This document shows positions 3,301 through 3,614 of a stretch of DNA of 43,868 nucleotides, piece by piece. The stretch's first letter is position 1. Every line of letters starts with the position of its first letter. The stretch spans positions 1 through 43,868 of the forward strand of contig NW_021834975.1 in assembly GCF_006345805.1 (NCBI RefSeq). Direction: 5' to 3'. The DNA is from Octopus sinensis (taxonomy: Eukaryota). A program made the translations under genes and the position numbers. Below the pieces are notes generated by a model that searched no databases, was not told the DNA's origin, and saw only the letters and a program-made list of their open reading frames with translations.

Positions 3301-3614
3301 TTAGAAATACTGAATTTCTAAATGTCTCAAAGAGACATGAACAGTGGTGGGGTGATAAAGTGGTTGTATAAAGTCAACATAACGTGACAGTCCCGTAGAG
3401 GGAATTACACCACCGCTATATAGCCCTAGGAAGCATCGACGCTTCCTGTCGGCTTTGACACATTTCCTGTGTCCTTATATTTGCAAAGGGGAGGCAAGCA
3501 CCCCCACCAGCTAGGACTAGCAACCTGAAGACATGCATGTTTCTGGGTCTTGCCCGTCATCAGTCCAGGATAGCGTGTCCCCGCCATCGGTGATACTTGC
3601 CAAGCCTTCTCAAG
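3301..3614 (-). mobile_element. ~314-bp non-coding hammerhead-containing element (Penelope-like LTR remnant or retrozyme-like)
   Basis: More GC-rich insert bounded on both sides by (TA)n; contains the hammerhead at 3524-3569. Confidence 0.7.
3524..3569 (-). ncRNA. Type-I hammerhead ribozyme
   Basis: Minus strand reads CCUGGA-CUGAUGA-CGGG caaga CCCA-GAA-ACAUGCAUGU-C-UUCAGG: 6-bp stem I, intact core, palindromic stem III, GUC cleavage triplet. The first pair of stem II is a C-A mismatch. Confidence 0.85.

Follow-up and report, generated by a model that had tools for sequence, protein, structure and literature searches.

Positions 3301-3614 of the window (the whole stretch of 43,868 nucleotides analysed here, from Octopus sinensis contig NW_021834975.1) hold a non-coding unit with a type I hammerhead motif. 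We give about even credence to the view that it is a lone copy of a many-copy, non-coding, retrozyme-type unit, and that enzymes of a Penelope-like retrotransposon (PLE, Penelope-like element) do the copying and inserting. A preliminary description of this DNA had offered a retrozyme monomer or a solo Penelope LTR. Since the unit is multi-copy, non-coding, of retrozyme size and equipped with a canonical ribozyme, this was the right pair of candidates. On our analysis the either/or may also be softer than that description implied, because Xenopus retrozymes are presented as relatives of Penelope pseudo-LTRs in the available text of a recent preprint (Li, Clavereau and Pollet, 2026; bioRxiv 10.64898/2026.07.22.740005). 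To judge from its sequence, the element would work like a retrozyme monomer, in a class that is otherwise defined by tandem copies and circles. It is ordinary in kind, hammerhead repeats being common in animals, and its value is that of a test case: with a retrozyme-type ribozyme and Penelope-type scars together, the partner enzyme and the target site can be sought in one genome.

A compact non-coding insert between TA tracts

The features of the unit and its borders are as follows.

3301-3614, minus strand: whole non-coding unit (314 nt, 48% GC)
3285-3300, no strand: (TA)8, left-hand part of the presumed insertion target (sequence)
3615-3640, no strand: (TA)13, right-hand part of the presumed insertion target (sequence)
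3480-3614, minus strand: long ribozyme-bearing arm (outer helices 3601-3592/3502-3493 and 3608-3605/3489-3486; pair probabilities above 0.8)
3514-3580, minus strand: type I hammerhead motif (stem I with internal loop and closing helix, core, stem II, palindromic stem III)
3529-3530, minus strand: predicted self-cleavage site, after C17 at 3530 (sequence and standard hammerhead numbering)
3531-3540, minus strand: perfect 10-nt palindrome of stem III (predicted intermolecular pairing as a double hammerhead; self-duplex -13.3 kcal/mol)
3397-3477, minus strand: hairpin-rich core with hairpins 3473-3457 and 3454-3422 (prediction and family depth)
3302-3338, minus strand: pair of 7-bp hairpins that close off the unit on its 3' side (prediction)

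The strand of the ribozyme, together with the joints described below, points to minus as the sense strand of the unit and to 3614 as its 5' end. Because the ends merge into the TA tracts, they are uncertain by 1-2 bases. The compact insert between (TA)n tracts reported earlier is thus plainly there, at the one locus of one that is visible (the flanks of other copies lie outside the alignment coverage); the TA target that forms part of our preferred reading is drawn from this one locus. Within the window, a blastn search for a second copy of the unit returned only the self match and internal hairpins.

That the insert is non-coding, as the preliminary description held, is borne out by its longest stop-free frames, which span 62 and 57 codons and have no Pfam match. 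The frame that starts at an ATG in the ribozyme core ends after 44 codons and likewise has no Pfam match.

The RNA of the whole unit is predicted to pair strongly with itself. Compared with shuffled sequences, the 314-nt fold has a z-score of -4.07 on the minus strand and -3.60 on the plus strand, and none of 100 shuffles was as good on either strand, whereas the 81-nt ribozyme arm alone has ordinary stability (z -0.43; 73 of 200 shuffles as good). In the predicted fold, arms close at both boundaries of the unit, the outer helices of the 3480-3614 arm closing near the 5' boundary, and the fold is predicted to be unchanged when the unit is treated as a circle. The ggaagc/gcttcc hairpin noted previously is present at 3428-3434/3441-3447. 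The two hairpins at 3302-3338 are possibly an optional ‘tail’ of Penelope type, which in PLEs measures 30-40 bp; the few cases that bear on this are a single joint at 3331 and contigs with loose ends at 3355 and at 3399.

A hammerhead motif predicted to act in pairs

On the minus strand, all bases of the hammerhead core are present (C3-A9 at 3563-3557, G12-A15.1 at 3543-3540), as are the C15.2-G16.2 pair at 3539/3532 and the GUC triplet at 3532-3530. Stem I has 6 bp (3569-3564/3524-3529, one of them G-U), and beyond it an internal loop leads to a 4-bp closing helix (3580-3577/3517-3514). Stem II consists of three G-C pairs (3555-3553/3545-3547) under a 5-nt loop, and at its base C (3556) and A (3544) occupy positions 10.1/11.1, so that C·A replaces the usual G10.1-C11.1. 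The hammerhead had been called intact: this holds for the core, the GUC and the 10-nt palindromic stem III, and does not hold for the G10.1-C11.1 pair. The cleavage site predicted by standard numbering, after minus-strand position 3530, is the one put forward before.

Could such a motif be a product of chance, or a unique ribozyme of the host? Rfam gave no match over the whole window at gathering score, so no hammerhead family, and at E<=10 over 3200-3750 only six weak matches, none of them a hammerhead family; the absence of a hammerhead match and the single copy within the window would suit this reading, and the former also counts against our preferred one. Against a chance origin, a hammerhead descriptor (stem I at least 6 bp, stem II at least 3 bp) matched twice in the real window, whereas only 2 of 300 block-wise dinucleotide shuffles held at least one match and none of the 300 held two or more. 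So do the thousands of contigs that align here and a sister ribozyme that shows covariation, both treated below, and we consider the reading effectively refuted. The two descriptor matches should be the motif at 3514-3580 and one at minus 12345.

How might the ribozyme act? In the monomer, the core is predicted to be mispaired, and forcing the active fold would cost 4.7 kcal/mol. Two arm molecules together are predicted to fold at -54.1 kcal/mol, as against 2 x -22.1 kcal/mol apart, and in this two-molecule model both cores are open, both stems II are formed and the stem III palindrome is paired between the molecules. By this prediction two copies of the ribozyme act together, in the double-hammerhead arrangement that has been described for metazoan type I motifs (PMC4209133). 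A parallel exists in the axolotl ribozyme HHR_Amex2, whose helix III has two pairs and whose helix II is mismatched at its base: as a monomer it cleaves to 22% in an hour, and as a dimer much better (PMC7229834). A predicted fold is nevertheless no proof of activity, since cleavage was found in only one of nine predicted Xenopus dimers, as far as the available text reports (Li et al., 2026).

The unit had also been named the best candidate for activity. It is indeed the best formed of the three hammerhead-like motifs in the window. The lone copy, however, has one cut site and therefore cannot release a circle by itself, the active monomer fold carries the predicted cost given above, and the copy departs from the majority letter of run X1 at many variable places (see below); the models suggest that its activity is probably low.

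A repeat family with an apparently conserved ribozyme motif

The stretch of the unit, or part of it, is present in 20 of 24 listed runs, of which 14 hold at least half its words. These 20 come from 9 studies under 4 organism labels; no run among them is recorded as RNA. From four of the 24 runs (X1, X2, X5 and X15), contigs were aligned to 3100-3900 at 80% likeness or more, with 3272-3310 and 3607-3687, which are the two TA regions and hold the ends of the unit, left out. X1 alone has 4,148 contigs on 3100-3900, a stretch that includes the two flanking repeats. The unit is thus multi-copy, in many contigs and most runs, and the single-copy case that the preliminary description had named as refuting its reading is excluded. 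Summed contig depths were set aside as a measure of copy number, which they do not give, and we therefore claim only ‘many copies’. Pattern scans of metagenome, genome and viral contig collections gave no match; animal repeats are not expected there.

Along the unit, depth is very uneven. In X1, where a single contig has a depth of about 35-60, summed depth is 1.1 million at 3424-3450, 66,000 at 3532-3558 and 1,100 at 3586-3612. Each of the four runs has its highest family depth in the hairpin core at 3397-3477, far above the ribozyme part, whose core has 2-6% of peak depth; such a profile is unlike that of a plain tandem array, which counts against our preferred reading. The 3397-3477 core may be a module common to several families, for example a binding site for reverse transcriptase. 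No listed contig piece spans the whole stretch. In X5 and X15, which we guess to be RNA, the depth profile is like that of the DNA runs and there is no unit-length go-back joint, a comparison made on contigs only, which weighs neither for nor against expression.

Variation within the family was taken from 40 of 114 variant rows, in contigs at least 80% alike, which place 22 variable positions in the unit. Pairs predicted on the minus strand are broken by 2 of these 22 listed variants, with 7.3 expected at random (P 0.005); for the plus-strand fold the count is 3 of 22, with 6.5 expected (P 0.03). None of the 22 lies inside 3524-3569 (P 0.02, for an interval chosen afterwards). Judged from these sequences, the ribozyme looks as if it had been kept by selection. 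Because the rows listed hold no common variant at 3556 or 3544, the data suggest that this subfamily usually has C·A at 10.1/11.1. At 13 of the 22 listed variable places the window copy has a letter other than the X1 majority, and it would therefore be aged or belong to a minor subfamily. An octamer-like word at 3479-3486 was considered and rejected, since at three positions within it 27-40% of X1 depth carries a variant.

A sister ribozyme in X2 was read by eye from loose ends at 3534 in five contigs, with an agreement of 0.99. Its core is identical apart from position 7, and its stem II has four pairs (U-A, G-C, A-U, G-C), the middle pair being changed on both sides, under a loop that still starts with C and ends with A. 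If the loose letters directly follow 3534, its stem III appears to be 2 nt shorter and still palindromic.

Inversions, falling depth and the probable mode of spread

Fourteen joints are listed for the four runs, 13 of them inside the unit: nine strand inversions, three go-backs and one skip. By the length of the shorter side, three of the inversions can join only high-coordinate (5') ends, none only low-coordinate ends and six either; two are common to X1 and X2, and one of the three, 3522/3574, near the fold-back of stem I, may be a template switch. Summed depth falls towards 3614, and less so towards 3301. Taken together, the inversions and the fall of cover towards 3614 point to a minus-sense element that is copied from the 3301 end, with early stops and inverted second copies, and a Penelope-type spread of the family is likely. 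Since depth falls towards 3301 as well, and since loose ends at 3399 in 21 X1 and 21 X2 contigs look like diverged versions of the same sequence, subfamily divergence also shapes the profile; the unevenness may come in part from this divergence, from mask edges and from overlapping contigs.

For tandem copies, on the other hand, the evidence is scarce, which weighs lightly against our preferred reading. One of the 13 joints is partial-tandem-like, a go-back from 3566 to 3331 in one X1 contig with the intervening letters unseen, and no unit-length head-to-tail joint is listed in any of the four runs, where coverage left out 3272-3310 and 3607-3687.

It is conceivable, if improbable, that the unit is a SINE-like element moved by a non-LTR retrotransposon (LINE), the ribozyme only trimming its 5' end. 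Twin priming by LINEs also yields 5' truncation and inversion, so both would be expected under this alternative, and a reverse-transcriptase zinc-finger fragment lies in the window at 7108-7815 (a weak zf-RVT match, below cut-off). One X5 contig, moreover, matches the element as far as about 3529, where the first base beyond the predicted cut lies, and is then unlike it for at least 255 letters; this would suit a trimmed 5' end, and the contig is possibly a copy made from self-cleaved RNA, as a single case (loose end 3522) among the 24 listed of 535 loose ends. The unit, however, has no tRNA head, ARAGORN finding no tRNA gene in the window (a decayed head could be missed by this search), and it ends in neither a poly(A) nor a simple-repeat tail of its own, TA tracts standing on both sides. 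Moreover, the available text of two studies associates type I hammerheads whose stem III is palindromic with PLEs and retrozymes (PMC4209133, PMC7229834).

For a retrozyme-type unit moved by Penelope-like enzymes, we envision the following scenario. Transcription of the minus strand would take place at a source locus in which at least two ribozymes follow one another. Two of these would associate by way of the stem III palindromes and cut after 3530, which could give a unit-length linear or circular RNA. A GIY-YIG endonuclease of Penelope-like type would nick a (TA)n tract, and the reverse transcriptase would begin at the 3301 end of the RNA and proceed towards 3614; it would often break off before the end, and at times an inverted second copy would be added. 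The insertion in the window would have kept the whole ribozyme arm; alone, it would make at most one cut, probably a weak one, in a read-through transcript.

Retrozyme unit or end of a coding Penelope-like element

Every Penelope mark listed above would also fit a piece of a coding element, which is a point against our preferred reading. A substantial possibility, to which we give appreciably less than even weight, is therefore that a coding PLE, probably of Neptune type, has left its 3' end here as a solo pseudo-LTR truncated on the 5' side; full-length copies would then, at the same rather modest likelihood, carry an ORF for reverse transcriptase and GIY-YIG upstream of 3614. The steep fall of X1 depth towards 3614, the inverted joints and TA target, which are PLE marks, and the scarcity of tandem joints all speak for it. 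So does X15 record 16, with 3,363 letters, which ends in 3574-3455 and has 3,243 unseen letters upstream, about the length of a PLE; this record, however, departs at 3574 while other contigs follow the unit to 3606, and its upstream part may therefore be host transcript.

The form of the ribozyme bears on the same question. In metazoans, the canonical hammerhead, with a helix I of 6 bp, a helix II of 4 bp and a short palindromic helix III, has been described for tandem-repeat retrozymes (PMC4209133, PMC7229834), whereas the hammerheads of PLEs are said to have a minimal form that keeps the G10.1-C11.1 pair and bulges after A9 (PMC4209133). Our motif has the retrozyme build, with a helix II of 3 bp and a C·A (the X2 variant has 4 bp), and lacks the minimal PLE form by its canonical build and by C·A at 10.1/11.1, which argues against a coding PLE. 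Two motifs closer to the PLE form sit elsewhere in the window. The ORF of the Anolis PLE starts in stem II and continues through the pseudo-LTR (PMC11167929), in contrast to the frame from the core ATG here, which stops so early, and the 5' boundary is predicted to lie at the base of a closed RNA arm. Among Xenopus retrozyme families, 24 of 57 match known transposons, and 21 of the 22 matched are PLEs, at their termini, in the text available; ribozyme type therefore does not cleanly separate retrozymes from PLEs.

Among the closest known systems are the animal non-LTR retrozymes (Cervera and de la Pena, 2020, PMC7229834), especially the axolotl Rtz_353/HHR_Amex2 and the mussel family. Like these, the unit falls in the size range of 150-450 bp, has no ORF and strong predicted self-pairing, and carries a canonical type I hammerhead with a two-pair helix III; the mismatch at the base of helix II is U·U in axolotl HHR_Amex2 and C·A here. 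Its GC content is below the limit of 50% in the text of that paper and above the 45% of its figure. Retrozymes are defined there by tandem arrays and abundant circular RNA, whereas the family here looks mostly dispersed, truncated and inverted. The unit also resembles the retrozyme ‘monomers’ derived from PLE pseudo-LTRs (Li et al., 2026), which are dispersed solo full-length units with one ribozyme. The available portions of that preprint, whose sample comprises 31 vertebrates, 3 insects and 1 coral, place Xenopus retrozymes close to PLE pseudo-LTRs, report solo monomers as common and regard monomers as possible offspring of tandem copies, unable to transpose further. Monomers are defined there by a match to a tandem family, and none was found for the unit here; conversely, the inverted joints and TA targets seen here are without description in the text available.

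The comparison with PLEs is similarly divided. Like the pseudo-LTRs of Neptune and Poseidon PLEs (PMC4209133, bioRxiv 10.1101/2021.04.23.441226, PMC11167929), which bear an endonuclease, the family has a hammerhead in what would be a terminal repeat, inverted truncated neighbours and an insertion in AT-rich or (TA)n DNA; the fall of depth towards 3614 may reflect 5' truncation as in these PLEs. Compared from the unit alone, it differs from PLE pseudo-LTRs in its canonical rather than minimal ribozyme and in having no recognised ORF start. Naiad PLEs prefer (TA)n but, unlike the unit here, are without hammerheads. In the literature, 5' truncation, partial tandems and inverted truncated neighbours have been reported for PLEs, as have a (TA)n target for Naiad and a microsatellite bias for Neptune (Craig et al., bioRxiv 10.1101/2021.04.23.441226). 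The accessible text of Frangieh et al. (PMC11167929) describes PLE cleavage as AT-rich, reverse transcription as starting internally, and the PLE ribozyme as needing the help of protein and being dispensable for insertion in vitro.

From a wider perspective, a retrozyme family might spread mainly as dispersed, Penelope-style insertions into TA microsatellites, with scars of truncation and inversion. We advance this only tentatively, with appreciably less than even weight; if true, it would be direct genomic evidence that PLE enzymes mobilise canonical-hammerhead retrozymes, which the available text of PMC7229834 and of the 2026 preprint proposes and does not show. Both works put forward PLEs as enzyme suppliers for retrozymes and state the mechanism as open. 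If, alternatively, the unit is the end of a coding Penelope element, it would only add an example with a canonical ribozyme to the PLE class.

A literature search, with subscription papers mostly outside its reach, found no report of a cephalopod retrozyme. The repeat annotation of Octopus vulgaris (PMC13282606) lists 31 Penelope-like families with recent activity and 893 SINE families that are unclassified, and the word ‘ribozyme’ is absent from its main text. The family may already be catalogued in Repbase, in Dfam or in published supplementary family lists.

Neighbouring repeats and motifs in the window

A second hammerhead-like motif on the minus strand, with its core at 12345-12309, has a full core, a 4-bp stem II, a 6-bp stem I and a non-palindromic stem III. 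The element around it spans about 12145-12590, with TA runs on both sides, and resembles the terminal part of a Penelope-type element; 12100-12650 holds no notable ORF. The third motif, also on the minus strand and with its core at 34529, is of the minimal PLE type, with an extra base after A9, a long stem II and almost no stem III.

The unit is flanked by repeats of high copy number. To the left, pieces aligned to the repeat at 3111-3283 stop at the left TA tract (3272-3310 being left out), two contigs carrying 346 and 633 further letters that are not placed on the element, and the repeat is probably a separate family. On the right, a repeat at about 3690-5138, which ends at a long TA tract at 5139, holds broken minus-strand frames (4315-4918) suggestive of a Tc1/mariner transposase; the two frames had no Pfam match. 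A search for shared inverted ends between the right-flank repeat and 5138, or for one older element split by the insertion, found none, and the joints listed include none of that kind.

Further along the plus strand, the fragment at 7108-7815 is a C-terminal piece of a non-LTR retrotransposon ORF, perhaps of R4/Dong type, which adjoins (ATA)n (zf-RVT E 0.002). Tandem units of 183-184 bp, SINE-like in size, occur at 2017-2572 (3.0 copies) and 17011-17384 (2.0 copies).
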